64,000 bases of DNA from Candidatus Magasanikiibacteriota bacterium. Lineage in GTDB: Bacteria; Patescibacteriota; Patescibacteriia; Magasanikbacterales; GWA2-37-8. Shown here one piece after another: positions 2,642 to 51,551 of this stretch (position 1 is its first letter; each line of letters opens with the position of its first letter). A program made the translations under genes and the position numbers. Below the pieces are notes generated by a model. It was given only the letters and a program-made list of their open reading frames with translations, did no database searches and was not told the origin of the DNA. The stretch spans positions 211,923-275,922 of the forward strand of contig JACOYB010000004.1 in assembly GCA_016182085.1 (NCBI GenBank), in the 5' to 3' direction.

Positions 2642-4081
2642 ATGTCGAGCGACACCTCCCGTTTCCGTCACCCGCTTACGACCCGCTACACCTCGGACGC
2701 CATGCAGGCGCTCTTCTCCGAGGACAAGAAGTTCATGACCTGGCACGACATCTGGATCGTGATCGCGCAGATCCAACAGGCCCTCGGGATCCCGATCACC
2801 GATGGGCAGATCGGCGAGATGGTGGCGGCACGTGGTCATATCAACTACCCGCTCGCTGCCCGTCTGGAGAAGGAGAAGAAGCACGACGTGGTGGCACATG
2901 CCGGGGCGTTCGGGGCGGATTGCCCCAATGCGCAGGCGATCATTCATTACGGCGCGACGAGCTGTGAGGTCACGGACAACGCTGACCTCATCATCATGCG
3001 GGAAGCGCTGGATCTGATCTGCGTTTCTATTGCCAAGGTGATCAACCGGCTGAGTCGCTTCGCTGTACAGTACAGCAGCCTGCCAACGTTGGGTTACACC
3101 CACTTCCAGGCTGCACAGCTCACCACCGTGGGCAAGCGTGCCTGCATGTGGCTGCAAGATCTCGTGATGGATCTCGCGGAACTGGAACGGCTTCGTGCCG
3201 GACTTCGTTTCCGGGGCGCCAAGGGTACCACTGGTACCCAGGCGAGCTTTCTCGAGATCTTTGATGGCAATCACAAGAAGGTGGAAGAACTCGAATCCCG
3301 CTTCGCGGCGGCGTTCGGTTTCAATCACATTTTCGCCATCACTGGTCAGACCTACACGCGTAAGCAGGACTCGGTCGTGTTCCATGCGCTCGCCTCGCTG
3401 GGTGCCACCATCCACAAGATGGCGACGGATCTTCGCCTCCTCGCCCACGAGAAGGAGATCGAAGAACCGTTCGACAAGGATCAGGTGGGCTCTAGTGCCA
3501 TGGCCTACAAGCGCAATCCGATGCGCTGCGAGCGTGCCTGCGGCCTGGCCGAACTGCTCATGAAGTACGGTGGTGTCGGCGTTCACATTCACGCTGATCA
3601 GTGGATGGAACGTACGCTAGATGACAGCGCCATTCGACGGATTGCCATCGCCGAAGCGTTCCTCCTCGCCGACGCGATCCTTATGATCATGCAGAACGTC
3701 TGCGAGGGGCTGGTCGTCTACCCCAAGGTCATCGCACGGAATATTCGGGAGGAGCTGCCATTCATGGCCACCGAGAACTTCATCGTCGCCATGGTGAAGA
3801 AGGGTGGCGATCGTGGGAAAGTCCACGAGCGGATTCGTGTCCACAGCCAAGCCGCTGCACGACGAGTGAAGGAAGAAGGGCTCGATAACAATCTCATCGA
3901 TCTCATCCGGGTTGATTCGTACTTCAGCCCAATCCATGACGAGCTCGATGAGCTCATGAATCCGATCACGTTCATCGGCCGCGCGGCGGAGCAGGTGGAT
4001 CAGTTCCTGGAGACCCAAGTGAACCCGGCCCTCAAGCCCTACCATCAATGTCTCGGCGGAGCTGCTCAGCTCAACGTCTGA
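2642..4081 (+). CDS. purB: adenylosuccinate lyase, eukaryote-like PurB/ADSL clade; very high GC and GC3
   Basis: Fumarate-lyase superfamily motifs [15 protein letters not shown] and [20 protein letters not shown]. Long collinear similarity to human ADSL and B. subtilis PurB. About 62 % GC, with third codon positions almost all G/C. Confidence 0.9.
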   Translation: [479 protein letters not shown]

Positions 4082-4960: not shown

Positions 4961-4982
4961 TATTTAATTGGGCGTTTTGTTA

Positions 4983-5016
4983 AAAAGTTTGCCAAGTGTC
5001 TCGATTAACCCTACGG
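4983..5016 (+). repeat. 33-bp cassette-boundary repeat, copy 3
   Basis: aaaagtttgccaagtgtctcgattaaccctacgg. Confidence 0.9.
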
Positions 5017-5100
5017 CTTTAGAACATGTAGAACCCATGTCTCTGAACAAAAAAGCAACGCAAATAGCGACTGCCTTTTTGTTTTTTAAACATTAGGGTA
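5017..5100 (+). repeat. second repeat family (P-type unit), intact copy
   Basis: CTTTAGAACATGTAGAACCCATGTCTC | TGAACAAAAAAGCAACGCAAATAGCGACTGCCTTTTTGTTTTTTAAACATTAGGGTA. The left half recurs at 6311-6345 and the right half at 6714-6772. Confidence 0.7.
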
Positions 5101-6772: not shown

Positions 6773-6904
6773 TTTTTATTTATATTTTATAATTATTTTA
6801 TCTGTTCTCTAGGAAAATGGGGATAAGGTTGCATTTATACGGGAGTCTAGCCTGGCGTGGGGCAAAAAGCGTGCTATAATATAGAAAATTTATTTTTATA
6901 CTAT

Positions 6905-7576: not shown

Positions 7577-7781
7577 AAATCTTCATTAAATTTTATTTTT
7601 ATTTTATCTATACTTTAATTTTTTTTATAAAAAACTTTAGAATAATTTTAAATTTATTTTTCCTTCGTTAGATTATAATAAAGCTTATCTAGTCTGTTCC
7701 TGCTCTGCCGCTCTTTTAAAATTCAAGATGGAGAAGGGGTGACATAGTAGCAGGATGGGATCGTGATAAAGGGAGGACATC

Positions 7782-8528: not shown

Positions 8529-8575
8529 GGTGCGCGCCGGAGTTGTGGCTGTATTAAGAATAATATTTTTGTCTT

Positions 8576-24878: not shown

Positions 24879-24894
24879 TTTTGTATCTCTAAGT

Positions 24895-25266
24895 ATGAAG
24901 AAAATTCTTATAGTTGAGGACGAGTTAGCGCTGTTGTACGCTTTGGCATCCCAATTTAGTAAAAAGCAATTTACAGTCTTTGAAGCTGTAGATGGCGAAG
25001 AGGGCTTGAAAAAAGCCATAGATGAGCAGCCGGATTTAATTTTATTGGATTTATTGATGCCAAAAAAAGACGGCATGTCCATGTTAAAAGATTTGCGCAA
25101 GCATCCGTGGGGCAAAAACGCGAAAGTTATAATTTTAACCAATTTAAGCGATGCCGAAAAAGTTGACGAAGCGCTTAAAAATGGCACCTATGATTATTTG
25201 GTAAAAACCGATTGGAACATCACTCAAGTCATTGAAAAAGTAAAGGCTAGTTTGGGAATGAAATAG
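24895..25266 (+). CDS. single-domain response regulator (CheY-like receiver)
   Basis: MKKILIVEDE...DLILLDLLMPKKDG...KVIILTNLSD...K. Confidence 0.85.
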   Translation: MKKILIVEDELALLYALASQFSKKQFTVFEAVDGEEGLKKAIDEQPDLILLDLLMPKKDGMSMLKDLRKHPWGKNAKVIILTNLSDAEKVDEALKNGTYDYLVKTDWNITQVIEKVKASLGMK

Positions 25267-25273
25267 CCGGACT

Positions 25274-26848
25274 ATGTCTTTGTTGGACATAGACGTAATA
25301 AAACGCGCCGCGCTTCAATGGACGATTGCGCGGCATGATTTCGCTAAATCAAAAAGCAAAACGTTTCTCGCGTTTTGTTTTTGTTTTATAGCCGGCGCGG
25401 GCAGTTTTTCTTTCTTAGAAAGCGCAAATCTTTTATTTTATCTGTATATTTTTGTCTTTGTTATTTTATTTTTTACTATTATTTTCTGGTATAAAAAGTC
25501 GCATAGATTTTTATGGTTATGTCTGTTATTTTTTATTTTAGGAGCCGTTAGATTTTTAATTACCATTCCGGAAAAAAATAATTCCAGAGTAGAATTTTAT
25601 AATGGCGAGAAAAAGATTGTTCAAGGATTTATTATCAAAGAACCGGATAGAGGTGTAAGTGACGTGCGATATATCGTGCGTGTTGAAAAATTAAAAGAGG
25701 GTAGAAATTTTATTCCGGTAACAGGTAATATTGCGATCAAAACTCTGATTTATCCGGAATATAATTACGGCGATAATTTGGAAGTAGAATGTTTGTTGCA
25801 AGAGCCGGCAAATTTTGAAGATAGTAGATTTAATTACCAAAAATATTTGGCTAAACAAGATGTGCGGTCTATCTGCAGCAATCCAAAAATAAAAATATTA
25901 AAAGGCAGTAGCGGAAACTGGTTTATTAAAACTATGCTGGGTTTTAAGAAAAAAATACAAATCAATATTTCTCGGTTATGGCCCGAACCAGACGGCAGTC
26001 TAATGGCCGGAATACTCTATGGCAGCCGCAGCGGCTTGCCCGCAGATATAGCCGATAATTTTAGTCGTACAGGCATCAGTCATATTATTGCGGTATCCGG
26101 GTATAACGTAAGTATTATTATCGTGGCTTTAAATGCTATTTTAATTTATGTAGGATTTTTTCGCCGGCAATCATTTTGGCTTTTGGCATTTTTAATTTTA
26201 GCGTTTGTATTTTTTACCGGTGCCAGCGCTTCGGTGGTGCGCGCGGGAGTTATGGCGCTGGTAGTTTTGGTTGCGGGTCGGGTCGGCAGGCTGTCAGCTA
26301 TAGGACGGGTGTTGGTATATGCGTGTGTGATTATGCTTATTTTTAATCCGTATATACTTTTGTGGGATGCCGGGTTTCAACTATCATTTCTAGCCACGAT
26401 AGGTCTGGTGTATATATCGCCAATTATACAAAATTTTATTGATGGTAAATTTATTCTTAAAAATTCAGCTGTTTTAATTGTTCTAGAAGTATTTAGCACC
26501 ACCATGGCCGCGATTATCGCCACTCTGCCGCTTATTATGTATCAATTTGGCCGGGTGTCGCTCGTAGCGCCGCTTGTGAATATCCTAATTTTATGGGTCA
26601 TACCTTGGCTTATGTTGTTTGGATTTTTGGCGCTAATTTCTAGCTTTATAATTTTCCCCATCGGGCAACTTATTGCTTGGTTAACAGAAGTTGGTATACG
26701 GTATGTTATAATGGTAGTAAATTGGTTTGGGAATAAAAGCTGGAGCGCATTTGATATGCGAATTTCCTTGCCAGTTATGATTATTATTTACTTAATCTTA
26801 TTTATTTTTGTATGGCTAAAAAAGCCAAAGTTTTATCTTCAGAAATAG
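25274..26848 (+). CDS. comEC: ComEC/Rec2 competence channel protein (membrane core, no MBL domain)
   Basis: DUF4131-like N-terminus plus Competence domain (GISHIIAVSGYNVSII...FTGASASVVRAGVMALVVL). Confidence 0.75.
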   Translation: MSLLDIDVIKRAALQWTIARHDFAKSKSKTFLAFCFCFIAGAGSFSFLESANLLFYLYIFVFVILFFTIIFWYKKSHRFLWLCLLFFILGAVRFLITIPEKNNSRVEFYNGEKKIVQGFIIKEPDRGVSDVRYIVRVEKLKEGRNFIPVTGNIAIKTLIYPEYNYGDNLEVECLLQEPANFEDSRFNYQKYLAKQDVRSICSNPKIKILKGSSGNWFIKTMLGFKKKIQINISRLWPEPDGSLMAGILYGSRSGLPADIADNFSRTGISHIIAVSGYNVSIIIVALNAILIYVGFFRRQSFWLLAFLILAFVFFTGASASVVRAGVMALVVLVAGRVGRLSAIGRVLVYACVIMLIFNPYILLWDAGFQLSFLATIGLVYISPIIQNFIDGKFILKNSAVLIVLEVFSTTMAAIIATLPLIMYQFGRVSLVAPLVNILILWVIPWLMLFGFLALISSFIIFPIGQLIAWLTEVGIRYVIMVVNWFGNKSWSAFDMRISLPVMIIIYLILFIFVWLKKPKFYLQK

Positions 26849-27420
26849 GCTATAATTTGGCCGCTGCTGTGTATGATGAAAATGAAAATTATTTAAATAG
26901 TTTTGAACAAGGTGAGCTTATTCCTTTGCTTGGCGCTCTGGCTGACAAGAAGATTTTGGATGTTGGGGCTGGTACGGGCCGCCTATCCTTGCCCTTGGCA
27001 AATAGGGGGGCAAAAGTCACCGCTTTAGATGTCTCGTCCAACATGTTAGATTTAATAAAGAAAAAAAATAGTAAAATTGAAATTATTGTAGGTGATGCGG
27101 AAAGCCTGCCTTTTGAAGATAATACATTTGATATTGTGACGGCCGCATTTTTAATTGTGCATCTCAAAAACCCAACCAGATTTTTTGATGAAGCGTATAG
27201 AATCTTAAAAGACGGAGGGATTTTGGCGGTGACCAACATTAATCAGAAGGATCCGCCGCAAGTAAAAACAAAACAAGGTAATATTATAATTGAATCTTTT
27301 TATCATCGTCCGGAAAAAATAATAGAAATATTAAAATCGTTGGCTTTTAGCATTGCAGAAAATATTTTTGTAAAGGAAAAAGAGCTTTGGATAAATCAAG
27401 TTGTGGTGGCGAGAAAGTAA
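26812..27420 (+). CDS. class I SAM-dependent methyltransferase
   Basis: Motif I ILDVGAGTGRLSLPLA and post-I acidic residue (ALDVS). Overlaps the comEC 3' end. Confidence 0.7.
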   Translation: MAKKAKVLSSEIGYNLAAAVYDENENYLNSFEQGELIPLLGALADKKILDVGAGTGRLSLPLANRGAKVTALDVSSNMLDLIKKKNSKIEIIVGDAESLPFEDNTFDIVTAAFLIVHLKNPTRFFDEAYRILKDGGILAVTNINQKDPPQVKTKQGNIIIESFYHRPEKIIEILKSLAFSIAENIFVKEKELWINQVVVARK

Positions 27421-27423
27421 AAT

Positions 27424-27490
27424 AAAAACACATCCTCCTTCCCATGTTTACAAAATTTTATAAAAATGGGAAGGCCGAAGGATGTGTGTT
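27424..27490. terminator. long bidirectional hairpin (CACATCCTCCTTCCCATG...CATGGGAAGGCCGAAGGATGTG)
   Basis: Duplicated at 27991-28052. Confidence 0.5.
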
Positions 27491-27508
27491 TGTCCGGCGG
27501 CCTGCACG

Positions 27509-27850
27509 CTACTTAGGAAAAGTAATGACGGGATGGGTTCTGAGAATAAGAGGCGGACATTTGGCCTTGGCATCGTAATCTACCGATCTCTTTTGCAACC
27601 AAGGCATCTGTTTACAGCGAGGACAGTCTTCGCCCTCATTGTGCCATTCACCTTCTTCGCTTTGAGATTCGCTGCAGTAAGCCTTTTCACATTCGGGGCA
27701 TTGCAGGTTCGGACTTTGAGAAATATCCTGCGAATTACATCCCGGACATCTTACGATCATTCCCAAGGCCGTTTTATTTTTTAGTAGCGATGACTCCTTG
27801 GTGACGCAGCCGCATTTCGCGCATATCCAGATTTGTTCTGGGTGGGACAT
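27509..27850 (-). CDS. Cys-rich zinc-ribbon protein; GC-rich
   Basis: 113 aa with four CxxC pairs (CAKCG, CPGCN, CPECE, CPRCK). RBS AAGGAG. About 50 % GC in an otherwise roughly 33 % GC neighbourhood. Confidence 0.5.
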   Translation of the reverse strand: MSHPEQIWICAKCGCVTKESSLLKNKTALGMIVRCPGCNSQDISQSPNLQCPECEKAYCSESQSEEGEWHNEGEDCPRCKQMPWLQKRSVDYDAKAKCPPLILRTHPVITFPK

Positions 27851-27899
27851 CTATGGGTGCTCCTTATCAGGAATTTAACATAATTTTAAATATAAATCA

Positions 27900-28097
27900 A
27901 TGGATAAGAGTAAAAAAATTCTTTTGGCAGCCGGTGTGATTTTGGCGGTAACTAATATTAACCAGAAAGATTCGCCGCAAGTAAAAACAAAAACACATCC
28001 TTCTTCCTATGTCTACAAATTTTATAGACATGGGAAGGCCGAAGGATGTGATGTTGTTTGCTGCGGCCTTGAATTTACTGTTTATGGTAAGATGTAG
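27900..28097 (+). pseudogene. chimeric pseudo-ORF created by segmental duplication
   Basis: The N-terminus MDKSKKILLAAGVIL copies the start of the 28304 gene (MLKSKKILLAASIVL). The next part, AVTNINQKDSPQVKTK, copies the methyltransferase C-terminus (AVTNINQKDPPQVKTK). The remainder is read through the duplicated terminator hairpin. Confidence 0.6.
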
Positions 28098-28259
28098 TCA
28101 GTCGCTATACGCCCACGCCACGAACCGAGCGTAGTCATCGTTGTAGCTACTACGTCGTTGGCCGCCACCCTGGGTAGTCTTGGGACGTGGTTTGGTCCTT
28201 GGCTTCGGAGCCTTTGTCTTGGGTTTGGCTTTTGTCTTAGCTTTGGAACGGTTCGTCAT
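28098..28259 (-). CDS. small highly basic protein (53 aa); GC-rich; below the ORF-track size cutoff
   Basis: RBS AGGAGG lies 4 nt from the ATG at 28259. Translation: MTNRSKAKTKAKPKTKAPKPRTKPRPKTTQGGGQRRSSYNDDYARFVAWAYSD. About 55 % GC. Confidence 0.4.
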   Translation of the reverse strand: MTNRSKAKTKAKPKTKAPKPRTKPRPKTTQGGGQRRSSYNDDYARFVAWAYSD

Positions 28260-28303
28260 GTTTCCTCCTAAAAAGAATTTAACATAACTAAAATTTTAAA
28301 TCA

Positions 28304-29173
28304 ATGCTCAAGAGCAAAAAAATCCTATTGGCCGCCAGTATAGTTTTGATTACTTCATTGGGTCTGGTTTTGTATTTTTTGTACAAACAAAATACTCAGC
28401 ATAAATTTCAAGTTACGTTTTTTGATATTGGCCAGGGAGATGCCGCTCTAATTCAATTTGGCAATGGCCAAAAAATGCTGGTGGATTGCGGCGCGGATAA
28501 AAAAATTCTGGCCAAACTTGGGCGCGCGCTGCCTTTTTATGATCGCAACATAGATTTTCTTTTAGCCACACATCCAGACCTGGATCACTACGGCGGTTGT
28601 GTGGATGTTTTAAAAAATTATAAAGTAAAAGAAATTATTATAAATGGCCATAAAAAAGAATATGATGCGTATTGGAGAACTTGGGACGAGGCGGTAAAAA
28701 ATGAAGGGGCGAATATAAAAATTATAAACAGTCCCGAAGTTTTGATAATCGCCAGTTCAACTTTGGAATTTTTATCACCCGACAGTTCCTTGGATTTGGA
28801 TGTGGCCAGTGATGATAATAATAATTATTCCATAGTTTTTAGATTAAAAAATCAGGAAAAAAGCTTTTTGTTTACAGGTGATATGGAAATACCTTTGGAA
28901 AATGCTTTGATGAAAAAATATTGTTCTCCCACTTCAAGTTCCACGTCTGTCTGTCCAGCTTTGGAATCCAAGGTTCTTAAAGTTGGGCATCATGGCAGCG
29001 ATAGCTCCTCAGGGGAAGATTTTTTGCGGCTAGTCAGTCCCGAGAAGGCGGTTATTTCCAGCGGCAAAAATAATAAATATGGCCATCCATCATTGCGAGT
29101 ATTGAGAAAAGCGGAAAGGAGTGGCGCGGAAATACTGCGAACGGATACTTTGGGCGATATTATAAAATATTGA
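28304..29173 (+). CDS. ComEC C-terminal metallo-beta-lactamase domain protein
   Basis: MBL motifs HPDLDHYGG and VGHHGS. N-terminal TM anchor. Confidence 0.75.
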   Translation: MLKSKKILLAASIVLITSLGLVLYFLYKQNTQHKFQVTFFDIGQGDAALIQFGNGQKMLVDCGADKKILAKLGRALPFYDRNIDFLLATHPDLDHYGGCVDVLKNYKVKEIIINGHKKEYDAYWRTWDEAVKNEGANIKIINSPEVLIIASSTLEFLSPDSSLDLDVASDDNNNYSIVFRLKNQEKSFLFTGDMEIPLENALMKKYCSPTSSSTSVCPALESKVLKVGHHGSDSSSGEDFLRLVSPEKAVISSGKNNKYGHPSLRVLRKAERSGAEILRTDTLGDIIKY

Positions 29174-29346
29174 CCCGGTTAAATCCGGCAAGGCCGGTCT
29201 GCGCAGCAGAATTTAACGGGGTTGACATAAGTCGGTATAGATGATAACATATCATTATTAAAGAGCTTTCATAAAGAAACGCTCTTTTTTGTTAGCAATT
29301 TTTGTGCTAAACTATTAACTAACTACCTTAATTTAAGAAAATACAT

Positions 29347-30576
29347 ATGTCAGATATCACTAAGGCCATGCAAGTATTATGTGAGGAAAAAAACCTTTCT
29401 TATGAATCCGTATTAGAGGCAATTGAGTTTGCCCTTGCGGCCGCGTATCGCAAGGATTTTGGCAATAAACAGCAAAATATCAAGGTAAAGTTTGATCCGG
29501 AGACTTCGGATATGAAAGCTTGGGACGTTAAAACTGTTGTGGAGGATATCCCCGAAGAAACCTTGCTTGCCGCCCAAGAAGAATTAACCAAACGACGTGA
29601 AAAAGCCAAAGAGGAAAAACGTGAATTGACCGATGAAGAAACTGAAGACTTGCCTCGTTTCAACCCAAAGACCGAGCTGATGATTTCCGCCGCTAAAGAA
29701 ATAGATAAAAAAGCAAAAGTAGGGGATGTTTTGGAAATTCCACTTGAAATTCAACACGAATTTGGTCGTATGGCCGCGCAAACCGCCAAACAAGTTATTA
29801 TCCAAAAAATTCGCGAAGCCGAACGCGGTATCATGTTTAATGATTTCAAAGGCCAGGAAGGTCAATTGATCATGGGTACGATCCAAAGAGCCGAAGCCCG
29901 CAAAGTTTTGGTTGATTTTGGAAAAGTAACCGGCGTGTTGCTCGCAGATCAGCAAAATCCTCGCGACCACTATCGCCCGGGCGCGCGTATGAAGTTTTTG
30001 TTATTGTCCGTAGAAATGACACCGCGCGGTTTGGAAGTGTTATTGTCTCGCAGCGATGTCGGTATGGTGCGTGAAATTTTCAAACAAGAAATTCCGGAAA
30101 TTAACGACGGTGTCATAGAAATAAAAGGCGTTGCCCGTGAGTCCGGTTTCCGTTCCAAAGTATCTGTATTTACGACTGATAAATCAATTGATCCGATCGG
30201 CTCTTGTATCGGACAGAAAGGCAGCCGCATAAATACAATTATTGAAGAACTGGGCGGAGAAAAAATTGATATCATCCAATATAGCGAGGATGCGAAAGAG
30301 TATATTGCCCATGCTTTGGCTCCGGCAAAAATCTTGGGAGTAAAATTAAATGAGGCTGAAAAAATTGCCGAAGTATCCGTGGTTACGGATCAATTCTCTT
30401 TGGCTATTGGCCGCAATGGGCAAAATGTTCGTTTGGCTGCCAATTTGACCGGTTGGAGAATAGATGTGGTAGAAGAAGGTGGAAAACAAGAAGTTTCAAG
30501 CGATAAAGTTGAACCGGAAGCATCAGAAGAAGCCGCCGTTGAAGAAGTCAAAGAAGAAGAAAAAGCCGTGGAGTAA
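29347..30576 (+). CDS. nusA: transcription termination/antitermination factor NusA
   Basis: NusA N-terminal domain, S1 and two KH domains (GSCIGQKGSRINTIIEELGGEKIDI). Acidic tail. Confidence 0.95.
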   Translation: MSDITKAMQVLCEEKNLSYESVLEAIEFALAAAYRKDFGNKQQNIKVKFDPETSDMKAWDVKTVVEDIPEETLLAAQEELTKRREKAKEEKRELTDEETEDLPRFNPKTELMISAAKEIDKKAKVGDVLEIPLEIQHEFGRMAAQTAKQVIIQKIREAERGIMFNDFKGQEGQLIMGTIQRAEARKVLVDFGKVTGVLLADQQNPRDHYRPGARMKFLLLSVEMTPRGLEVLLSRSDVGMVREIFKQEIPEINDGVIEIKGVARESGFRSKVSVFTTDKSIDPIGSCIGQKGSRINTIIEELGGEKIDIIQYSEDAKEYIAHALAPAKILGVKLNEAEKIAEVSVVTDQFSLAIGRNGQNVRLAANLTGWRIDVVEEGGKQEVSSDKVEPEASEEAAVEEVKEEEKAVE

Positions 30577-30581
30577 CCCAT

Positions 30582-30608
30582 GTCATCCTGAACTTGTTTC
30601 AGAATGAC
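30582..30608. repeat. GTCATyCTGAAC-family hairpin, short copy G, acting as nusA terminator
   Basis: GTCATCCTGAACttgtttCAGAATGAC. Confidence 0.6.
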
Positions 30609-30633
30609 AATTATTTAGTCATTAGAAATTTTT

Positions 30634-31386
30634 ATGTTAGCTTTGTTTAACACCATTCTATACCAACCAATATTCAATCTCTTTGTTTTTTTGTATAACA
30701 TTTTGCCCGGACACGATGTTGGTTTGGTAATTTTGGCAATTACGATTTTAGTGCGACTGGCCGTGTATCCGCTTACGAGCGCTTCCATAAAATCCCAGCG
30801 CGCCTTACAGGATTTGCAACCAAAGTTAGCGGCTATAAAACAACAATACGCCGATGATAAACAAAAGCAAACGGTGGCTATCATGGAGATGTATAAAAAT
30901 AACAAAGTAAACCCGCTGGCTTCTTGTTTGCCAATGTTAATTCAGTTGCCGATTTTGATTGCCTTGTATATGGTATTGCAGGATGGGTTGAATTCAAAAA
31001 ATTTAGCAGATTCTCTGTATTCGTTTATCAGTAATCCGGGTACCATAAATCAAATTTCTCTTGGCGTCCTTAATATGGCCAAACCAAACTATGTTTTGGC
31101 TATTTTAGCCGGTTTGGCGCAGTATTTCCAAGCTAAAACTTTGAGTACAAAAAATCCCCCTCTTCAAGCCGGTGAAGGTTCAAAAGACGAGGCGATGATG
31201 TCTATGATGAACAAGCAGATGCTTTATTTTATGCCAGTGATGACCGTGGTAATTGGTTTTAATTTGCCCGGCGGACTTACCCTGTATTGGTTCTTCAGCA
31301 CACTGCTTATGGTGTTGCAGCAGCTATGGATTTCTAAGAATTTCAAAAGCAAGGGCAGCGTCATTGAAGGGCAAATCGTTAAATAA
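30634..31386 (+). CDS. yidC: YidC/Oxa1-family membrane protein insertase (short form)
   Basis: Five-TM core with conserved LPILIALYMVL and GLTLYWFFSTLL segments. Confidence 0.85.
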   Translation: MLALFNTILYQPIFNLFVFLYNILPGHDVGLVILAITILVRLAVYPLTSASIKSQRALQDLQPKLAAIKQQYADDKQKQTVAIMEMYKNNKVNPLASCLPMLIQLPILIALYMVLQDGLNSKNLADSLYSFISNPGTINQISLGVLNMAKPNYVLAILAGLAQYFQAKTLSTKNPPLQAGEGSKDEAMMSMMNKQMLYFMPVMTVVIGFNLPGGLTLYWFFSTLLMVLQQLWISKNFKSKGSVIEGQIVK

Positions 31387-43329: not shown

Positions 43330-43355
43330 TATGTTAGTTGCCAGTTTGGCGTAAT

Positions 43356-46300
43356 ATGACAAAGTTTCAAAAATTCGGAATAAAATTCTTGTTAGCAGTA
43401 TTTACCTTTATCACAATCGGCGGATCTTTGTTTTATGCTCGTCCGGCTCAAGCCTTTCCCGTAGAAATTACCTGGGATCCGGGCTATGTTTGGAGTGTAT
43501 ATAAAAGTTTTATAAAAGACGCGGCCGTAAGTATCAGCATTCAAACTTTTTCTTATTTTTTACGCCGAGTCGCGTATGATTCGGCAGTTTGGCTGGCTTC
43601 CGGAGGAAAGGGGCAGGCATCTTTTGCGTATGGAAAAAACTTCGGTGATTATTTAAAAGACGTGGGTGATAGCGCCGCGGGTGTGGCCATTGAAGCTTTG
43701 GGCGAAGACTTTGGTTTTAATTTATGTAAGATTCCGGACCCAAAAATAGATTTGGCTATGCGTATCGGGCTTACGCATAAATTCATGGATTTAAAGCCGG
43801 ATTTAAATACCGGACCGGGAGTGCGCGAGCCAACTTGTACCTGGTCAACATTTCAAAACGACGTCTTAAGCGTGGATAATTGGCAAAGCCAGTTTGGCAG
43901 CTCCGATAGTATAGCTCGTAAATTTAACGTGGCTTTTTCCGTAGAACAAACAGATATTGGTATCTTGCGCGGCGCTACAGATAAGATCAATCAATATGTG
44001 GCAAAGAAAATTGAAGCCGAGACGCTGCAAAGACAAGAAGGGGATGGCTATTTGCCTAAAACCACGCTTATTTCCGGAGATATTCTTACTCCGGGCAAAA
44101 ATATTTCCGAAGAAGCCCAAGCGCAGAATCCTAACAAACAAACCGAGTCAGCTCAGGCTGGATTTTTATCTACTCTTGGCACGGGCGCGGTCGGCACGAT
44201 TGCCAGCGCCGGTTCGATATTTTTTAACACCTTAGCTTCACAAATGTTAAAAAATTGGCAGAATAAAGGCATGCTGCCGTTTGGTATTGGTTGTGTGGCT
44301 GGCGTGGGTACCGAATGTAAAGATTTGCAAGATACGTTAAGTGATTTACAGGGACAGGTTTCTCGCGGCGGCAGGCAGGCCGCGCAGGCTTTGTTTAACG
44401 ATCTCTTAACGCCGCCAAATATCGCGGTTGATCAGTATAATGTTTTAGTAAATTTTACCAATTGTCCTACCAGTCCCGGTCCGGATAATTGTGTGGCGGA
44501 TGCCGGTTTGGCCCAGGCCGCTCAAGAGGCAAATTCTGGCCGCACCGTTACGATCGCTGAAGCTTTAGAAAAAAATTGGCTTCATAGTGAGTGGAGGTTA
44601 GTTTCTCCGGATAGGGTAGCCGATAATGTAGACCCAAGCTGTCACCAGCGAGCATATTGTTATGCCAATATCGCCAAACTGCGTAAAGCGCGAATTTTGC
44701 CGCTTGGTTTTGAAATCGCAGCCTTAAACAGCAACCCGGATCAGCCATGGACGCTCAAACAGGTTGTAGACGGATTTAACGATTGTAATTTTATTAGAGA
44801 TGTAAATGGTAATGTGGTGGGAGTTGAAAACGATCCGGTCAATAAACCGTTCTGTAGATTGATTGATCCAAATTGGGTCTTGAAAGCGCCGCCGTCAAAG
44901 TGTAATTTCCTGGCTTATGGAACCAGTCCGTATTTTTCCGGTACGCCAAATCGTATTCAGGAGTGTGTAAATATGAGTACCTGTGTGGCCTATGATAAGG
45001 ATGGAAATTGCGCCACGCAAGGATATTGCACCCGAGAAAAAAATGTTTGGAAAATAGACGCGGCTAAATGTGATTCGCAAAATCGCACCTGCCGTACATT
45101 CCAGGATAGTACCGGCAAGACCGTAAGCTATCTGTACAGAACCTTGGATACCGGTTTTTGTAATCAAGATACCGTAGGTTGCGCCGAGTATAGTTTAAAG
45201 CAAAATACTGCCGGCAATTGGATTGGATACGCGGAAAATGATCTGGGCTCTTTAGGAGAAAATTCTTCCGTTTACTTTAATAATAAAGTTTCCACCAACT
45301 GTTCATCTAATTCAGACGGATGCTCTTCTTTCCAGGTGGCCAACAGTTCAGAAAAATTATATCTCAAAAAAGCGCCATATTACTCGCAGTGTTATGATAC
45401 CGATCAAACTACCGCAGTTATAGATTGGCCGCGAACCGCCAGCGATTTAAACAGGCTCCCAAATAAACCAGCCTGTAACAATTATTCTCAGGCTTGTATT
45501 GAGAGTGAAGTAAACTGTAATTGGTACGCGCCAAGCAGTTACACTGGCGATGCTATTCCGGGTAAGTTTACGCCAGCGTCGGTAAACGAAGGTCAGATAG
45601 TTTGGAATGATCAGTGTGATGCCAGGTGCGTAGGGTATGCCGCATACAGGGAAATGCCAAGCAATTATTCCAACGGTCAACCTGTTTCTTACGTTATTCC
45701 TTCATCCGGCAATTCCTGTAGCGCCGCAGATGAGGGCTGTGCCAGCTTTACAAACCTCGGCACAACCGAAGGCGGTTTGGAAAAAGTTGAGCACTATTCT
45801 TATTTGCGACCTTGTATTTTGCCCGACACCACTAAACAAAAGACATTCTATACATACGAAGGATCGGCTGTGGGCGGTTTCCAACTGAAGAGTTTTATTT
45901 TAGAAAAAGATACGGATGGCAGTCCTAAATATTTTTATCGCACTGCCGATGATTTGGCTACGTATGCGGCTACTTGCAGTCAAAACCTCTATCAACAAGG
46001 TTTAGCCAGTCCGGATTGCCGCCAATTTAATGATGATCAAGGGGCTGTATATTACAAATTATTGTCAAAGACTATCGCGGTTGCCAGTAACTGTACGCCA
46101 TTTAGATTAAATGATACCGAACTACACGATGTTGCGTTAAATGAAGTCAATTGTTTGGCGCAAAGAGGAAAATGGGATGCAGCTGCCGGAAGTTGTCAGG
46201 TATGTTTCCAAAACGGAGAATACAGAGACGGCGAGTGTTTCTATTATGGCCTGCCCGGAAATACGCCTAATACGGCCGGTACCAGCAAACCATGCGCCGC

Positions 46301-49300
46301 GGCGGCAAATACCTGCCGTGCTTATAAAGGAAACACCGGCAACAATGTCCGTAATATTTTTACCAATAATTTTGAACAATCGGTCGCGTCCGATGCTTTA
46401 GCCGGCTGGGGACCATCTTCGGATATCGCGCAATCACTTGAATCAACCCGGTCCGGAGAACATTCCTTGTCATATAATGGCACAGGCGCAGTATACAAGG
46501 ATATAGTATTAACTCCAGGTGAAAGTTATGATCTTACGTTCTGGGCCAAAGGAGCGGTGGGAGAAACAGTTACAGTTACTTTAGAAAATAATCAAGTTTC
46601 TAATTTAGGCACAATCAGTGTCGGCGATGCTTGGCAAAATTATCACCTCGGTCCAGTAGAATTAACCGGAAATGTTTCCAGTACCAAATTGCAATTTGCA
46701 GTTAACGGCCGGTTGTTCCTGGATAATGTTCACCTCAAAGAAGTTACCGATTTTATCTATCTTGTTAAAAATTCCCTTAGTGTTGATCCGGTTTGTGATA
46801 GCAATCTAAACGATAATTTACCGGGCGAAGCCTTGGGTTGTTCGCAGTATCAGACCCCGGATAACAGGCCAATTTATTTAACCGGTTTTACTTCGCTGTG
46901 TCGTGAAAAAGCAATCGGTTGTACGGCAGTATATGATACGCGCAATACGCCGGATGAAGTCGGCCCACGAGCGTATAATGTTTGGCTATCCGGGCCGGAA
47001 GGTCAAAGTACCAGCCGAAATATTGTTGGCACGGAATATAGATGCCAGGTTGCGCTTGGTCAAAAAGGTTGTTATGTACATGTAACCGGCGCAAATTTAA
47101 GCTCTATAGTTGCCGGCGGAGGCGCGATAGTTACTTCAACTATATACGTGCAGCCAGATTCGCCAACTACCACGCCTCTATATTTAGTAGCTAGCCGTGA
47201 AGCGACCTGTAGTCCGGTTGATTTAGGCTGTACGAAAGCCGGAAAACTAGTACAGACTCCAACCGGCCCAACGTATACCGAGGTAACAGTTAAAAAAGAT
47301 CCAAGCAGCTTTAATACCACGCTTTGTCAGCAGGAAGCGGTCGGTTGTAACGCATACTCTTCAAGCGATGGGGCGCTGTACTTTAAAGATCCGCAGTATT
47401 TAGGTCAAAAAGTTTGCGCTTACAGAGATAACGTAACTAAAAACGGTGTTAGATATAACGGTTGGTTCTGGAAAGGCGTAGGCAAGTGTGGCGCCGGAAA
47501 CGCCAGCGATCCATTCTGCACCAAAGACAGCGATTGCGCGTCCGGAGTTACCTGTAATCAAAAAGATGAACAGCCATGCTATCCAAATTATTTGCAATCC
47601 GGAAATAACTATGGCCTGTGGTCTTATGGCGTAAGCAGTTCATATAATAATTTTGTCGGTGAATGTCCGGCTACCCAAAATGGCTGTACGGAATTTATAG
47701 ATCGCAATGAAAATAATAAGACCTACTATCTTATCAATGATGATAGATTAAAGACACAGCAAACCGAATGTAATGGACAGATCAGTGAAAAAAACGGCTG
47801 TATTCTGCTTGATAGAACTGATTCACCAAACAAATTATGGAACACGGCCGCTTCCTATGCTGTCAGCGCGGGCCAAAATAATAATTTGGTGGCGCCAGTG
47901 GCTGGAACAGGCACAGTGACAAATGATGCCAATGTTATTTTGAAAGTTAGTAGAGATAGAGAATGTGGAGAATGGCTCCAATGCCGCTCTTCGCATCGTG
48001 TCTTCGACACGCAATCGGGCAGCTACAAAGAAGTTTGTGACGCCATCGGCCGCTGTAATAAATCTTCGGATTCATACAGCAACGCTGACTTCATCAATTG
48101 CTCCAATTGGCTTGATAATAATCACGAACTCAGCAATCAGATTTTAACTGATGACGCGTACCGCAATCGCAATACCACTTGGAAAGGTCAGGACTTTAGC
48201 GGTTACAGTATTTTAAATACGTTCCCGATTGAAGAATTGTCAGAAGTAAATGTGGGCAACGCTACGGCGGCCGATTGGCGTTTGGCCAAGACGCTCGCTT
48301 GCGGCGGAGGTCCTAACTGCAGATCTGCCACCGACCCTAATAGTCCATCTTGCGGATTAACCAGTGTTGGGTTGCCATGCGGTCGCAATAATGCCGGTGT
48401 TTGTTTGGGTTCGGTAAATCCAGTTTGTGTCCAGGATTTAGACAGTCCGGTTGTTGGTGTTCCTCGTCAATCCATAGCGCCAAGTTGTCGCGCTTATCCG
48501 GAAGAAACTTCGCCATTCCCAAATAGCCAAGCTATCAGTGATTCGCTGGCATTTAATTCGGTAAATACCTGTAACGAAACATCTGGATTTAGCACCGATC
48601 CGGGTAAATATAACAGCTGTGAATGTAATTACACCAAAGTTACGTATGGAGACGCAGTCACCAAATATTGGAATTTCAAAAATCCGAACAATGAGGGTAT
48701 CTTGGATACCAATAATCAAAATATACAAGGCGTGGTAAGTGGAATTTGTGTTGGCGGAGATAGTGCCGACCGGGCTTGTGATTCAGATAGTGATTGTACC
48801 GGTGGCAGCTGTCAAAAATTAAAGAAACAATCCCGCCTTATCGGCTGGCAAGGCTATTGTATTGAATATGATTATTCCAGACCGCTCAATGCCGAACAAA
48901 ATAGTTTTGCTTGTTTAACTTGGTTCCCGAAAGATAATATTACTGGCGCGTTTGATATAAACAATCAGCATGTGGAGGCAGGGTTCCAGGCGACCGAAAC
49001 AAACGGTAAATATTACTGCTTGGAAGCAAAAGGTTATCAGGAAACCAATAGCAATCCAGCTGTAAATGGTAGCGGCGCGCTTACATATAACAGATTTTTG
49101 GGTGGTGGAAATATTTCTAAACCGGGTTCTAGTGATGATCCAGCTGATCCAGATAGAGCTAAGAGAGTTGTGGTTGCTGACCCAGCCAAGCCAATTTATC
49201 GGGATGAAATTGATTATATATTAGTATCTCCCGTAGGCGGTGGCGGTAGTTGGTTCCCAAATACTTCACAATCCTTCTATATTAGAAATGGTCTTATTAC

Positions 49301-50960
49301 TAAATATCAAGGAGCTTTATGGAATGTGCTTGAAGAACCGGATGGCCAACCTATCCAAGGAGCTCAACGATTATTTGGTGAAGCCATCAGTTTATCACCC
49401 GGACAGTATGTTTGGTCTGATGGGCGTGATAGGAACGCATGGTATATGCGTCATGATGATGGTCAAGGTGACGGGAACGACGACTATCAATTTATTGGCC
49501 CAAGTTCTGAGGTAATGGGGCAGTATGCTGATCTGCTAAGATCGGATTGTGCCGGTCCGATAGATGTACCGCAAAATTGTTGGACAAACAATACCGGTCC
49601 TAATTGCAGGGATCGTTATCAACGTGATTGTATAGTCGGTGGTGCCGACAATAGTGACGACGGCTGTTCTGTAAAAGTCGTATTTGATCCGAATGGTCGT
49701 TTAAATAGAATAAATTTAGTTTGTTTAACCGGTGATTCCCGACATGAAGAAGGTAGAAACTTCAACTTCTATGTTGGTTTGCGCGAACCTTGCGCCAACA
49801 TTGCTCAAACCGAAACAAATTCGTATACATCCGTTGGTTGGACAGACAGGTTGTGGCGTCAAAGTACATTTGCAATCCCAACATTAAATTATCGTAATTC
49901 ACTTATCAGTTCTCCGTATGGTAGTTTGGCTATGCCAAGTTCACTTGTGTCGGATAAACTGATTAATATATTTACCCACTATAATGCTGACACATTTGAT
50001 CCGCCGCCAGCCATAGCCGGCGCTCCATATTCTTGCGCAGGCACTTGTTTGCAAACTAACCCAACCGCGCAGGAAGGTTTGTCTGGCACGGCCAGCCAAA
50101 GAACCTCGGCGCAAGGACGGGATAGCCTGGCACAAATTTTTGCCAAAATTGATAATGTTTGGAATTGGGGCTTTAGTACTGCCAATTCAGCCTGGTCGTA
50201 TCAAGCAAATACAAGTCTTCCATATAACTTTACTGAAACTTTAACTTCAGCCGTAAATACGCCGCAAGTGCATACCTTGGGAGCCTGCAGACCCGGAGGA
50301 AAATGTTTGGAAGGTAATGTTGCCGGTATAAGTATAAACGATAGAGCCAGCGGTGATCTTGTGTTTAATAGCAATGTTGGTGTTGTTAATGCCAAATTCT
50401 TTGGCTTCGCCAACAAAGATCAAATGCCAATCAGAAAAATTAAATTGGATTGGGGAGACGGCAATGTTGTTTCTCTAGACGGTTATTTCCGTAATCAGCG
50501 CGGTACGGTAAATGGAACTTGTGGAACAGGAGGCAAATGTTTGGTCGGTTCTACCGATACCGGTAAATCATGTACATCAAATAGTGATTGTACAAACATA
50601 GATAATTGTTTTGCCGAAAGCCAAGCGCCAAACTTTGGACAAATAGTCGGCAAGACTTGCGACTCTGCCTATTTCCGATTTGATCATGTCTATCAGTGTT
50701 CTCGCGAAAGCAGTAATTGGACAAATAGTTGTCCAAACGCGCAAGCCCAGAGTTTGTATGGCGGTTGTTGTGTCTTCCAGCCAAAAGTTCAGCTCAAGGA
50801 TAATTGGGGATGGTGCAATGGGGTTTGTGGGGATGCGGGAAGTCCAGGTGGAACAGGTTGTTACGATGCAAATGTAGGCACAGGAATAAAGGAATGTGAA
50901 ACTTTGCCATCTGCATATACACCTTCTTCTGCCAGAGTAATTGTTGCACCTGCTGATTAA
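43356..50960 (+). CDS. giant (about 2535 aa) secreted Cys/Asn/Gly/Thr-rich surface protein
   Basis: Single uninterrupted ORF. The track starts at TTG 43338; ATG 43356 gives signal peptide MTKFQKFGIKFLLAVFTFITIGGSLFYARPAQA. Roughly 150 or more cysteines, many as CxxC and C-x(n)-C pairs. No catalytic motifs recognised. Confidence 0.8.
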   Translation: MTKFQKFGIKFLLAVFTFITIGGSLFYARPAQAFPVEITWDPGYVWSVYKSFIKDAAVSISIQTFSYFLRRVAYDSAVWLASGGKGQASFAYGKNFGDYLKDVGDSAAGVAIEALGEDFGFNLCKIPDPKIDLAMRIGLTHKFMDLKPDLNTGPGVREPTCTWSTFQNDVLSVDNWQSQFGSSDSIARKFNVAFSVEQTDIGILRGATDKINQYVAKKIEAETLQRQEGDGYLPKTTLISGDILTPGKNISEEAQAQNPNKQTESAQAGFLSTLGTGAVGTIASAGSIFFNTLASQMLKNWQNKGMLPFGIGCVAGVGTECKDLQDTLSDLQGQVSRGGRQAAQALFNDLLTPPNIAVDQYNVLVNFTNCPTSPGPDNCVADAGLAQAAQEANSGRTVTIAEALEKNWLHSEWRLVSPDRVADNVDPSCHQRAYCYANIAKLRKARILPLGFEIAALNSNPDQPWTLKQVVDGFNDCNFIRDVNGNVVGVENDPVNKPFCRLIDPNWVLKAPPSKCNFLAYGTSPYFSGTPNRIQECVNMSTCVAYDKDGNCATQGYCTREKNVWKIDAAKCDSQNRTCRTFQDSTGKTVSYLYRTLDTGFCNQDTVGCAEYSLKQNTAGNWIGYAENDLGSLGENSSVYFNNKVSTNCSSNSDGCSSFQVANSSEKLYLKKAPYYSQCYDTDQTTAVIDWPRTASDLNRLPNKPACNNYSQACIESEVNCNWYAPSSYTGDAIPGKFTPASVNEGQIVWNDQCDARCVGYAAYREMPSNYSNGQPVSYVIPSSGNSCSAADEGCASFTNLGTTEGGLEKVEHYSYLRPCILPDTTKQKTFYTYEGSAVGGFQLKSFILEKDTDGSPKYFYRTADDLATYAATCSQNLYQQGLASPDCRQFNDDQGAVYYKLLSKTIAVASNCTPFRLNDTELHDVALNEVNCLAQRGKWDAAAGSCQVCFQNGEYRDGECFYYGLPGNTPNTAGTSKPCAAAANTCRAYKGNTGNNVRNIFTNNFEQSVASDALAGWGPSSDIAQSLESTRSGEHSLSYNGTGAVYKDIVLTPGESYDLTFWAKGAVGETVTVTLENNQVSNLGTISVGDAWQNYHLGPVELTGNVSSTKLQFAVNGRLFLDNVHLKEVTDFIYLVKNSLSVDPVCDSNLNDNLPGEALGCSQYQTPDNRPIYLTGFTSLCREKAIGCTAVYDTRNTPDEVGPRAYNVWLSGPEGQSTSRNIVGTEYRCQVALGQKGCYVHVTGANLSSIVAGGGAIVTSTIYVQPDSPTTTPLYLVASREATCSPVDLGCTKAGKLVQTPTGPTYTEVTVKKDPSSFNTTLCQQEAVGCNAYSSSDGALYFKDPQYLGQKVCAYRDNVTKNGVRYNGWFWKGVGKCGAGNASDPFCTKDSDCASGVTCNQKDEQPCYPNYLQSGNNYGLWSYGVSSSYNNFVGECPATQNGCTEFIDRNENNKTYYLINDDRLKTQQTECNGQISEKNGCILLDRTDSPNKLWNTAASYAVSAGQNNNLVAPVAGTGTVTNDANVILKVSRDRECGEWLQCRSSHRVFDTQSGSYKEVCDAIGRCNKSSDSYSNADFINCSNWLDNNHELSNQILTDDAYRNRNTTWKGQDFSGYSILNTFPIEELSEVNVGNATAADWRLAKTLACGGGPNCRSATDPNSPSCGLTSVGLPCGRNNAGVCLGSVNPVCVQDLDSPVVGVPRQSIAPSCRAYPEETSPFPNSQAISDSLAFNSVNTCNETSGFSTDPGKYNSCECNYTKVTYGDAVTKYWNFKNPNNEGILDTNNQNIQGVVSGICVGGDSADRACDSDSDCTGGSCQKLKKQSRLIGWQGYCIEYDYSRPLNAEQNSFACLTWFPKDNITGAFDINNQHVEAGFQATETNGKYYCLEAKGYQETNSNPAVNGSGALTYNRFLGGGNISKPGSSDDPADPDRAKRVVVADPAKPIYRDEIDYILVSPVGGGGSWFPNTSQSFYIRNGLITKYQGALWNVLEEPDGQPIQGAQRLFGEAISLSPGQYVWSDGRDRNAWYMRHDDGQGDGNDDYQFIGPSSEVMGQYADLLRSDCAGPIDVPQNCWTNNTGPNCRDRYQRDCIVGGADNSDDGCSVKVVFDPNGRLNRINLVCLTGDSRHEEGRNFNFYVGLREPCANIAQTETNSYTSVGWTDRLWRQSTFAIPTLNYRNSLISSPYGSLAMPSSLVSDKLINIFTHYNADTFDPPPAIAGAPYSCAGTCLQTNPTAQEGLSGTASQRTSAQGRDSLAQIFAKIDNVWNWGFSTANSAWSYQANTSLPYNFTETLTSAVNTPQVHTLGACRPGGKCLEGNVAGISINDRASGDLVFNSNVGVVNAKFFGFANKDQMPIRKIKLDWGDGNVVSLDGYFRNQRGTVNGTCGTGGKCLVGSTDTGKSCTSNSDCTNIDNCFAESQAPNFGQIVGKTCDSAYFRFDHVYQCSRESSNWTNSCPNAQAQSLYGGCCVFQPKVQLKDNWGWCNGVCGDAGSPGGTGCYDANVGTGIKECETLPSAYTPSSARVIVAPAD

Positions 50961-51039
50961 TCAACTCATTTTAAATAGCGGAAATAAAAAATCACTGACT
51001 AGTTCAGTGATTTTTTATTCTACTTAAAAGACGAAATTT

Positions 51040-51101: not shown

Positions 51102-51551
51102 CTAGTTTGATGGTGGTGAGAAGTTGCCGCGCAACTGCTCCGTATTGAGCCTGATGTGGACGATAGTGCCGTTGGTCAAGTCGATGTTCAGCGTGCCCTG
51201 GCCTTCCTGCAGAGGAAGATTGAACACGAAGCCGCCGTCTGAACCGTTCAGCAGGTTGCAGTCGAGCTGGCAGCTATCCGTCTGGTTGGGCGGCATGTCG
51301 GCCACTCGGCAGTCGAACTGAACCGGTGCGCTGACCGAGATCGTAATGCCAGACAGCTGGATGGCCTGCGCGCAGATCTCGGTTGGCATCGAGCCATCGG
51401 TCTGCACCATGTTGCCGGCGTCCACCATGACATCGTCGTCGCCATCGTCGGGCGGGCTGCCGCAGGCCGTGGCGCCGATGCCGACTGCCAGGAACAGAAT
51501 CGACGTGATGACGTTGAACCAGAACAGGGTCAGTTTGCTTTCCGGGTGCAT
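51102..51551 (-). CDS. GC-rich lipoprotein of unknown function
   Basis: Signal peptide with lipobox (LAVGIGATAC). RBS GAGGAG. About 58 % GC, versus roughly 35 % in the flanking DNA. Confidence 0.55.
   Translation of the reverse strand: MHPESKLTLFWFNVITSILFLAVGIGATACGSPPDDGDDDVMVDAGNMVQTDGSMPTEICAQAIQLSGITISVSAPVQFDCRVADMPPNQTDSCQLDCNLLNGSDGGFVFNLPLQEGQGTLNIDLTNGTIVHIRLNTEQLRGNFSPPSN

Follow-up and report, generated by a model that had tools for sequence, protein, structure and literature searches.

The 64,000-nt stretch of DNA analysed here (the window; Candidatus Magasanikiibacteriota bacterium, contig JACOYB010000004.1, positions 211,923 to 275,922) carries a competence locus in which ComEC is encoded in two parts: a core gene with the DUF4131 and Competence domains, and a separate, membrane-anchored gene of the metallo-β-lactamase (MBL) fold, which is the nuclease part of ComEC. 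A gene for a class I S-adenosylmethionine (SAM) methyltransferase lies between the two, and the interval from the methyltransferase gene to the MBL gene, which we refer to as the slot, contains two small genes on the minus strand (Table 1). One encodes a zinc-ribbon protein of 113 amino acids (aa); the other is a polybasic open reading frame (ORF) of 53 aa. Each is the cargo of one of two tandem units, unit 1 and unit 2 respectively, whose flanks are copies of one another. Our analysis confirms that the tandem duplication is real: it is a diverged, fixed duplication of a probable antisense expression module.

Table 1. Features of the methyltransferase–MBL slot and of the genes that border it, in window coordinates.
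Feature	Position	Strand	Evidence or remark
ComEC core gene (DUF4131 + Competence)	25274..26848	+	PF03772 E=8.6e-49, PF13567 E=4.2e-20
Class I SAM methyltransferase gene, parent of the methyltransferase fragment	26812..27420	+	Methyltransf_11 E=3.5e-28
Methyltransferase parent segment, codons ~133-154	27210..27273	+	Copied at 27929-27992; repeat D2
Hairpin 1, predicted terminator	27420..27491	.	-33.9 kcal/mol, z = -5.05; minus-strand U-tract UUUUUAUUUU
Zinc-ribbon gene, 113 aa, probable ancestral cargo of the slot	27509..27850	-	ORF; eight conserved Cys
Shine-Dalgarno site AAGGAG, zinc-ribbon gene	27860..27865	-	Aligns with Shine-Dalgarno sites of relatives
MBL stub: leader copy 1 and first 11-15 MBL codons	27871..27944	+	Repeat D1
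Promoter 1 (predicted), TTGATT-N17-(TGT)TAAATT	27872..27900	-	-35 box overlaps ATG of MBL stub
Chimeric pseudo-ORF, 65 aa	27900..28097	+	MBL stub codons 1 to ~11-15, in-frame codons of methyltransferase fragment, read-through of hairpin 2
Novel joint, MBL stub to methyltransferase fragment	27929..27944	.	D1/D2 overlap; three-way junction alignment
Methyltransferase fragment, copy of codons ~133-154	27929..27992	+	Abuts hairpin 2 via 154-nt deletion
Hairpin 2, predicted terminator	27984..28059	.	-40.6 kcal/mol, z = -6.21; minus-strand U-tract UUUUUGUUUUU
Polybasic orphan ORF, 53 aa, unit 2 cargo	28098..28259	-	ORF
Shine-Dalgarno site AGGAGG, polybasic ORF	28264..28269	-	Reading and alignment
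Leader copy 2 and start of functional MBL gene	28275..28348	+	Repeat D1
Promoter 2 (predicted), TTGATT-N17-(TGT)TAAATT	28276..28304	-	-35 box overlaps MBL start codon
MBL-fold gene, membrane-anchored, ComEC nuclease part, separate ORF	28304..29173	+	Lactamase_B PF00753 E=6.9e-16

Repeat detection and direct reading of window positions 26900–28700, with local alignments scored against shuffled sequences, revealed three collinear direct repeats with alignment scores of 68–107 against shuffle means of 14–18 (z = 21–42). These form the duplicated diagonal that a preliminary description of this DNA had predicted. Repeat D1 (74 nt, 78% identical, z = 21) covers the leader and the start of the MBL gene, almost exactly where that description had placed it. 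Repeat D2 (64 nt, 86% identical, z = 27) is an internal piece of the methyltransferase gene, and repeats D4/D5 (~75 nt, 88% identical; 27419–27493 and 27984–28057) are the two copies of a long hairpin. The diagnostic motifs of the duplication occur exactly twice in the 64 kb, with ~0 expected by chance. The end of the methyltransferase gene and its hairpin had been described as re-used at 27931–28052 with an internal deletion of 151 bp. The 86% and 88% repeats bear out the re-use, but the size of the deletion needs correcting: diagonal offsets of 719 and 565 give 154 nt, lost from unit 2. Both ends of the deletion fall within imperfect direct repeats of 15 nt, AAGTAAAAACAAAAC (27260) and AAGTAAAATAAAAAC (27415).

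The duplication has a single novel joint, at which the MBL stub passes into the methyltransferase fragment. The crossover lies inside a 16-nt stretch that is compatible with both parents, which have a TTTTG microhomology in common. To the left of the joint the sequence corresponds to MBL codons 1–11, and to the right it corresponds to the methyltransferase gene from codon ~132. Since the fusion is in frame, it creates a chimeric ORF of 65 aa. ORF translation and the junction alignment both identify this ORF as the mosaic that had been described before. It matches no Pfam family, and we regard it as a by-product of the joint, without function.

Could an assembler have produced this arrangement by concatenating two strain alleles of the slot? 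We give this explanation almost no credence. Exact-protein look-ups recovered three Logan contigs that are 100% identical to the window: L001 (24333–28026) and L002 (28018–33040), both from run SRR12113430, and L090 (27108–28041) from run SRR12113420, recorded in 2 samples. An artefact is hinted at by the SRR12113430 assembly, which breaks inside the loop of hairpin 2 and leaves L001 and L002 with an overlap of merely 9 nt. However, L090 bridges the break, and the two arms of hairpin 2, which lie on separate contigs in that run, pair with each other. The joint itself is wholly contained in L001 and L090, from different runs. Furthermore, the longest exact run common to the repeats is ~21 nt, too short to mislead a k=31 graph, and an assembler would be unable to make an in-frame fusion of two genes at a microhomology of 5 nt.

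The genomic setting of the duplication is much older than the duplication. Related loci, numbered here from L003, were sought by scanning GTDB species genomes with the MBL protein and then running tblastn with every protein of the window. Of the 49 loci scored, 47 encode the ComEC core and the MBL part in separate ORFs; the other two, where they are fused, are Firmicutes records. The methyltransferase gene lies between core and MBL, at the same position, in L003–L009, L083–L086 and L092–L097; in more distant Patescibacteria the core is followed by the MBL gene. Hence, both the split and the methyltransferase gene long predate the duplication, and the earlier idea that an insertion had split comEC does not survive. 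The DUF4131, Competence and MBL domains of the ComEC proteins of Firmicutes and Proteobacteria are all encoded at the window locus too. Whereas that prototype is one polypeptide, the window and nearly all examined Patescibacteria loci encode the MBL part in an ORF of its own, with a membrane anchor; in the clade of the window, a methyltransferase gene stands between it and the core.

The contents of the slot vary among relatives. In L003, the sister genome of the window, whose NusA is 98% identical, the locus runs sensor kinase, response regulator, ComEC core, methyltransferase, hairpin, zinc-ribbon gene (minus strand), leader, MBL; upstream of the zinc-ribbon gene of L003 is a second small orphan zinc ribbon, the stop and start of the two overlapping. 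L083–L086 have the zinc-ribbon gene only. The slot is empty, with the methyltransferase gene directly before the MBL gene, in L004, L005, L006 and L008, and it is also empty in L092 and L095. In L091 (152–940) the minus strand of the slot carries a truncated gene resembling dihydroorotate dehydrogenase (PF01180, profile positions 2–122 of 291), and in the window the slot holds the zinc-ribbon gene and the polybasic unit. This variety supports a hot spot of gain and loss rather than a mobile element. The records of L003, L004, L005, L007 and L008, the nearest GTDB genomes, bear the titles “uncultured Gammaproteobacteria” or “Candidatus Udaeobacter”. In these genomes the gene order is typical of Patescibacteria and, given this order and the more distant matches, the record taxonomy looks unreliable.

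Comparison with L003 also indicates uneven divergence along the locus. In neighbour-joining trees, every gene of the window has its L003 counterpart as sister. Sliding-window identity, with the ComEC columns of taxa other than L003 left out, shows divergence 3–4 times higher in the ComEC–methyltransferase–MBL part than in the NusA–YidC part. Over window positions 22869–31386, NusA and YidC are 97–98% identical to their L003 counterparts at the protein level, and the synonymous divergence (dS) of NusA is 0.33. The ComEC core, methyltransferase and MBL proteins are 80–88% identical, with dS of 0.6–1.2, and the response regulator has 95% protein identity yet a dS of ~2. This pattern suggests a mosaic, recombining history. 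Between MBL and NusA, L003 has ~2.5 kb that is not in the window (6865–9370), with three ORFs of 187–233 aa that have hydrophobic N-termini and no significant Pfam match; L083 has one 334-aa gene at that position (4031–5035). The MBL–NusA interval looks like a second variable slot adjoining the first.

The zinc-ribbon gene has relatives, and all of them point to the same place. A word-indexed search of 5.8 billion proteins with the zinc-ribbon query returned the query only. When 1.84 billion cluster representatives were searched exhaustively with HMMER, four homologues were recovered, P0003–P0006, with 33–50% identity. The genes for three of these, P0003, P0004 and P0005, lie between methyltransferase and MBL genes and run on the opposite strand (L083/L084, L085 and L086, respectively), and P0006 adjoins a methyltransferase gene in the short contig L087. 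The copy in L003 is 57% identical and lies on the minus strand in the same slot. The duplication is absent from L003, L083/L084, L085, L086 and L087, and a hidden Markov model of the family found no further zinc-ribbon copy in any fetched locus. The family has ~6 known members of 107–116 aa, all in one genomic slot. Because its orthologues occupy the same slot in the absence of any duplication, we consider the zinc-ribbon gene an old resident. Gene trees place it in both sub-clades, with several members lacking it, which indicates that it is ancestral and has been repeatedly lost.

These observations bear directly on the model given in the preliminary description, in which two successive insertions of foreign mobile small genes created long target duplications and split comEC. 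Three facts speak for the model. The zinc-ribbon gene and the polybasic ORF alike lie on the opposite strand; their GC contents, 47% and 55% respectively, exceed those of the neighbouring genes (36–39%); and the polybasic ORF has no relatives. However, at least five related genomes, L003, L083/L084, L085 and L086 among them, have the zinc-ribbon gene in synteny and lack a duplication. Its GC excess recurs in five of the six orthologues (0.46–0.50 against 0.38–0.42 for the loci; L086 has 0.41 against 0.39), and is therefore mostly a trait of the family and not the mark of a recent transfer. “GC-rich” is accurate as a relative term, against a window mean of 41% with a standard deviation of 6% per 200 nt, and not otherwise; the claim of foreign composition is not supported. 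Target-site duplications are short, and identical when formed, whereas the repeats here are 64–75 nt long and 78–88% identical, and the split of core and MBL and the methyltransferase gene are older than the duplication. We found no Pfam or PHROG match to a transposase, integrase or recombinase in 27420–28303, and no terminal inverted repeats, the sole inverted repeats being the two hairpins. Homology searches, which had been suggested as a check, placed zinc-ribbon homologues solely in this slot, with no cargo in any other context, and yielded no homologue of the polybasic ORF. We therefore consider two foreign insertions a very unlikely origin of the structure. A phage, plasmid or viral origin was also considered and rejected, since neither the 884-nt region nor the two small proteins gave a match.

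What, then, do the duplicated flanks encode? We infer that they are the promoter, Shine-Dalgarno site and terminator of an antisense gene, such that each unit would be a complete minus-strand transcription unit; the extension of the repeat into the first MBL codons would then be accounted for. The predicted promoter pattern, TTGATT-N17-(TGT)TAAATT, occurs exactly twice in the window, against 0.06 occurrences expected, and a T-run contributed by MBL Lys codons lies directly upstream of the -35 box. The pattern, which has an extended -10 TG, matches 8 of 12 positions of a sigma-70-type consensus. The -35 element and the 17-nt spacer are kept in position in L003, L083, L085 and L086; the extended -10 is kept in L003, L083 and L085, and not in L086. 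As previously described, a single small gene lies on the minus strand of each unit, and each of these genes has a ribosome-binding site of its own, AAGGAG or AGGAGG.

The hairpins have the features of intrinsic (rho-independent) terminators, judged by sequence: a stable, GC-containing stem and a U-tract. The U-tracts are found on the minus strand only, and the plus-strand tail of both hairpins is poor, which argues that they act mainly as terminators of minus-strand genes. Hairpin 1 would terminate the zinc-ribbon gene and, more weakly, the methyltransferase gene, and hairpin 2 would terminate the polybasic ORF. A generic scan missed both, their loop and stem being long. L003 and L083 have a homologous hairpin; none was found in L004–L009, relatives without the zinc-ribbon gene. 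A scan of metagenome contigs for the hairpin motif gave 0 matches, and an Rfam search of the window identified two tRNAs only, with nothing in the duplicated region.

Several lines of evidence argue that the zinc-ribbon gene encodes a protein. All eight Cys residues are invariant in an alignment of six sequences including L003, in the motifs Cx4C, CPxC, CxxC and CPxC. Between the window and L003, the proportion of nonsynonymous differences (pN) is 0.255 and that of synonymous differences (pS) is 0.83, which is saturated, giving a pN/pS of ~0.3; the nonsynonymous divergence (dN) is 2–5 times that of three neighbouring genes of the locus. Together, these values indicate a real, fast-evolving coding gene. 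By its composition, the product looks like a zinc-binding protein. Small stand-alone zinc-ribbon proteins (the TFIIB-type ribbon, bL33, PhnA-like proteins, rubredoxin-like knuckles) have four Cys pairs in common with it, and also the all-beta knuckle architecture predicted for the window protein. Unlike them, it stays below every Pfam gathering score and has no significant structural match. The best Pfam family was TackOD1 (20.5 bits against a cut-off of 32), and Zn_Ribbon_TF, zf-AN1 and DUF6510 scored 13–17 bits against cut-offs of 26–29. A profile search of PDB yielded generic zinc ribbons only, with bL33, the TFIIB ribbon and PhnA at E = 0.006–0.01. An AlphaFold2 (AF2) model has a mean predicted local distance difference test (pLDDT) score of 74, and the best E-value of a Foldseek search of PDB with that model was 0.26. 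No match was found in PHROGs, viral contigs, phages or plasmids. Membership in a defence system was considered and rejected, as PADLOC matches solely the generic methyltransferase domain. The distant homologues P0004–P0006 (L085, L086, L087) have Lys/Pro/Arg-rich N- and C-terminal tails, e.g. KLKLKPPRKLSSLPKPKRK, and the zinc-ribbon proteins of the window, L003 and L083 lack such tails. The separate polybasic ORF of the window resembles these tails in composition, which may be coincidental.

The polybasic ORF is an orphan. Its N-terminal two thirds are rich in K, P, T and R, its C-terminus is acidic and aromatic, and by composition it looks like a nucleic-acid-binding protein. A search of the 5.8 billion proteins returned only self-matches, and viral contigs, PDB, Pfam and PHROGs returned nothing. 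We tested two possible sources within the locus, a decayed copy of the zinc-ribbon gene and a relative of the second small gene of L003, and rejected both, since similarity at the DNA level and in six-frame comparison was not above that of shuffled sequences. Repeat detection reported a weak 18-nt repeat pair inside the ORF (D9); Tandem Repeats Finder finds no tandem repeat there.

An alternative explanation is that unit 2 does not encode a protein, the ORF having arisen by chance in GC-rich filler that yields a non-coding transcript or nothing. The ORF has no homologue, its GC content by codon position is atypical, and it is short and of low complexity, all of which would be expected of a chance ORF. 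However, it starts 4 nt past a perfect AGGAGG whose position is homologous to that of the Shine-Dalgarno site of the zinc-ribbon gene, and it spans unit 2 down to 38 nt before the terminator, filling the available space. There is also no excess of RNA structure in the unit 2 cargo (z = +0.39), which argues against a structured small RNA. We therefore think it unlikely that unit 2 is non-coding, and propose that the polybasic ORF is probably translated.

No similarity was found between the interiors of the two units: alignment of cargo 1 with cargo 2 scored 21, against a shuffle mean of 17 and maximum of 28. Nor does the 200-nt cargo of unit 2 resemble the cargo of L003, the rest of the window or the fetched loci. 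How did two units with unrelated contents come to stand in tandem? We propose that a small, self-contained minus-strand transcription unit resides between the methyltransferase and MBL genes in this lineage of Patescibacteria. Its parts would be a promoter of the form TTGAYT-N17-TGnTAAnnT, a Shine-Dalgarno site, a cargo, and a long hairpin with a U-tract, and its ancestral cargo would be a dispensable, fast-evolving double zinc-ribbon gene of 107–116 aa. In the window strain, a single recombination event would have set two such units in tandem through one illegitimate joint that links MBL codon ~11–15 to methyltransferase codon ~132 at a short microhomology. A 154-nt deletion between the 15-nt direct repeats, simultaneous with this event or later, would have removed the remaining methyltransferase fragment. 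As a result, unit 1 would retain the zinc-ribbon gene and unit 2 would drive the unrelated polybasic ORF. The route we favour is unequal recombination between a zinc-ribbon allele and a polybasic allele from a related strain. This may be an instance of homology-facilitated illegitimate recombination of transformed DNA, with the leader and MBL gene as homologous anchor and an illegitimate left end. Taken as a whole, this account seems to us the likeliest one, by a judgement only a little firmer than even.

The age of the duplicated sequences is informative here. The two copies are 73–88% identical, the same range as for either copy against L003, and orthologous genes of the window and L003 have 63–93% nucleotide identity. 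Over the methyltransferase fragment and terminator, unit 2 is 84–94% identical to L003 and 86–88% identical to unit 1. Informative sites for both copies, L003 (sister) and L083 (outgroup) are distributed 4:3:3 over the three possible groupings, i.e. as a star. As the copies differ from each other as much as orthologues do, there are two options: a duplication of roughly the age of the window/L003 speciation, or an origin of unit 2 in a third, similarly diverged lineage. We favour recombination between diverged alleles over duplication of identical units followed by divergence, although the data do not decide between them. It involves one event fewer, it explains the unrelated cargos directly, and repeats that had already diverged would escape recombinational deletion; repeats that are already 12–22% diverged would be stable against RecA-mediated deletion. 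A further reason is that the joints are of the kind that such recombination gives: homology-facilitated illegitimate recombination, described in Acinetobacter, Streptococcus pneumoniae and Pseudomonas stutzeri, creates exactly one homologous and one illegitimate joint (PMC3240628). Finally, Patescibacteria have natural competence (PMC10633639).

A second route to the same structure is tandem duplication in situ, by illegitimate recombination between sister chromosomes, with divergence since approximately the window/L003 split and subsequent replacement or overwriting of the unit 2 zinc ribbon by the polybasic sequence. We regard this as possible, and as the less probable of the two. In its favour, the arrangement, with one novel joint, is the classical one of a tandem duplication, and a star-like 4:3:3 distribution is what a duplication near the time of speciation predicts. 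The weak 18-nt repeat in the polybasic ORF could mean local growth of a young ORF, but Tandem Repeats Finder does not support the repeat. However, duplication in situ requires that the cargo was replaced in a further step, precise enough to leave the Shine-Dalgarno site and the terminator on either side intact, and the zinc-ribbon sequence has left no trace in unit 2 although the flanks are 78–88% identical. Moreover, identical direct repeats of 75 nt would normally be lost quickly through recombination in a streamlined genome.

Several observations weigh against the account that we favour, with its recombination between diverged alleles and its translated unit 2 cargo. A single-unit polybasic allele was found in no collection searched, which makes the donor hypothetical. 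The 4:3:3 quartet fits a duplication in situ as old as the window/L003 split equally well. Two paired positions of the hairpin stem (a compensatory A-U pair) and the leader motif GAATTTAACATAA are common to the two window copies and are not found in L003 or L083; these shared states, which would be derived on a duplication in situ, hint at common descent within the lineage or at gene conversion. The GC content of the polybasic ORF by codon position (0.46/0.59/0.59) is unlike that of host genes. A generic promoter scan with a threshold of 9 of 12 positions found nothing, having missed the pattern because it matches 8, and the promoter, the terminator and the translation of the polybasic ORF are all read from the sequence only. 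The Logan contigs probably come from the same study as the window, and are independent of it by run and assembler only. We also considered the third-codon-position bias of the differences in the methyltransferase fragment (5 of 6) as a test for a donor; after assignment to branches it was not decisive.

The structure has partial precedents in two known processes. With tandem segmental duplication by illegitimate recombination, it shares collinear repeats, a head-to-tail joint at a microhomology and a deletion between short repeats. Unlike a classical tandem segmental duplication, its units hold unrelated cargo, and identical units were not freshly duplicated here, since the repeats are as diverged as orthologues of different species (73–88%). 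With homology-facilitated illegitimate recombination, it shares one homologous side, the leader and MBL gene, and one side with a microhomology of a few nt. Unlike the cases described, the donor would be a diverged allele of the same locus, which is hypothetical, and the outcome a duplication and not a foreign insertion.

Three regions elsewhere in the window also have unusual composition or gene content. A GC-rich island at 2571–4176, with GC content of up to 0.65 against a window mean of 0.41, is compositionally foreign to the genome and contains an adenylosuccinate lyase ORF of 479 aa (2642..4081, plus strand; PF00206 + PF10397). At 4427–4960, a 91-aa ORF without a Pfam match is followed by an 84-aa toxin of the ParE/YafQ type (PF05016, E=3e-07), and the pair is probably a type II toxin-antitoxin module. 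A giant Cys-rich ORF of 2540 aa (43338..50960, plus strand) is followed by an island with GC content of 0.67 (51029–51659). This island contains a 149-aa ORF (51102..51551, minus strand) with an N-terminal hydrophobic segment, which is another GC-rich antisense small gene.

What is the significance of a duplicated antisense unit inside a competence locus? One far-reaching reading, which we put forward as speculation with little expectation that it is correct, is that the slot is a “gene nursery” in a DNA-uptake locus. A portable antisense module would repeatedly acquire or give birth to tiny orphan proteins that modulate ComEC/MBL-dependent DNA uptake or degradation, and its duplication here would have served to fix a polybasic nucleic-acid-binding protein, either newly born or captured. 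If this were true, the zinc ribbon, the second zinc ribbon of L003 and the polybasic ORF of the window would be examples, and the separate polybasic ORF could supply in trans the function of the tails of the distant zinc-ribbon homologues.

More conservatively, the window adds a new case to processes that are already known, namely illegitimate recombination, repeat-mediated deletion and the turnover of orphan genes. The current understanding of competence and of the candidate phyla radiation is unchanged. What had appeared to be foreign insertions splitting comEC is mostly an old, vertically inherited architecture, and that misreading is corrected here. Our analysis documents a tiny, uncharacterised zinc-ribbon family, with ~6 known members, in one slot between the two halves of ComEC in Patescibacteria, and identifies the methyltransferase–MBL slot as a hot spot of gain and loss in related genomes. 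A duplicated antisense module that would drive an orphan ORF also bears on the origin of small genes in streamlined genomes.

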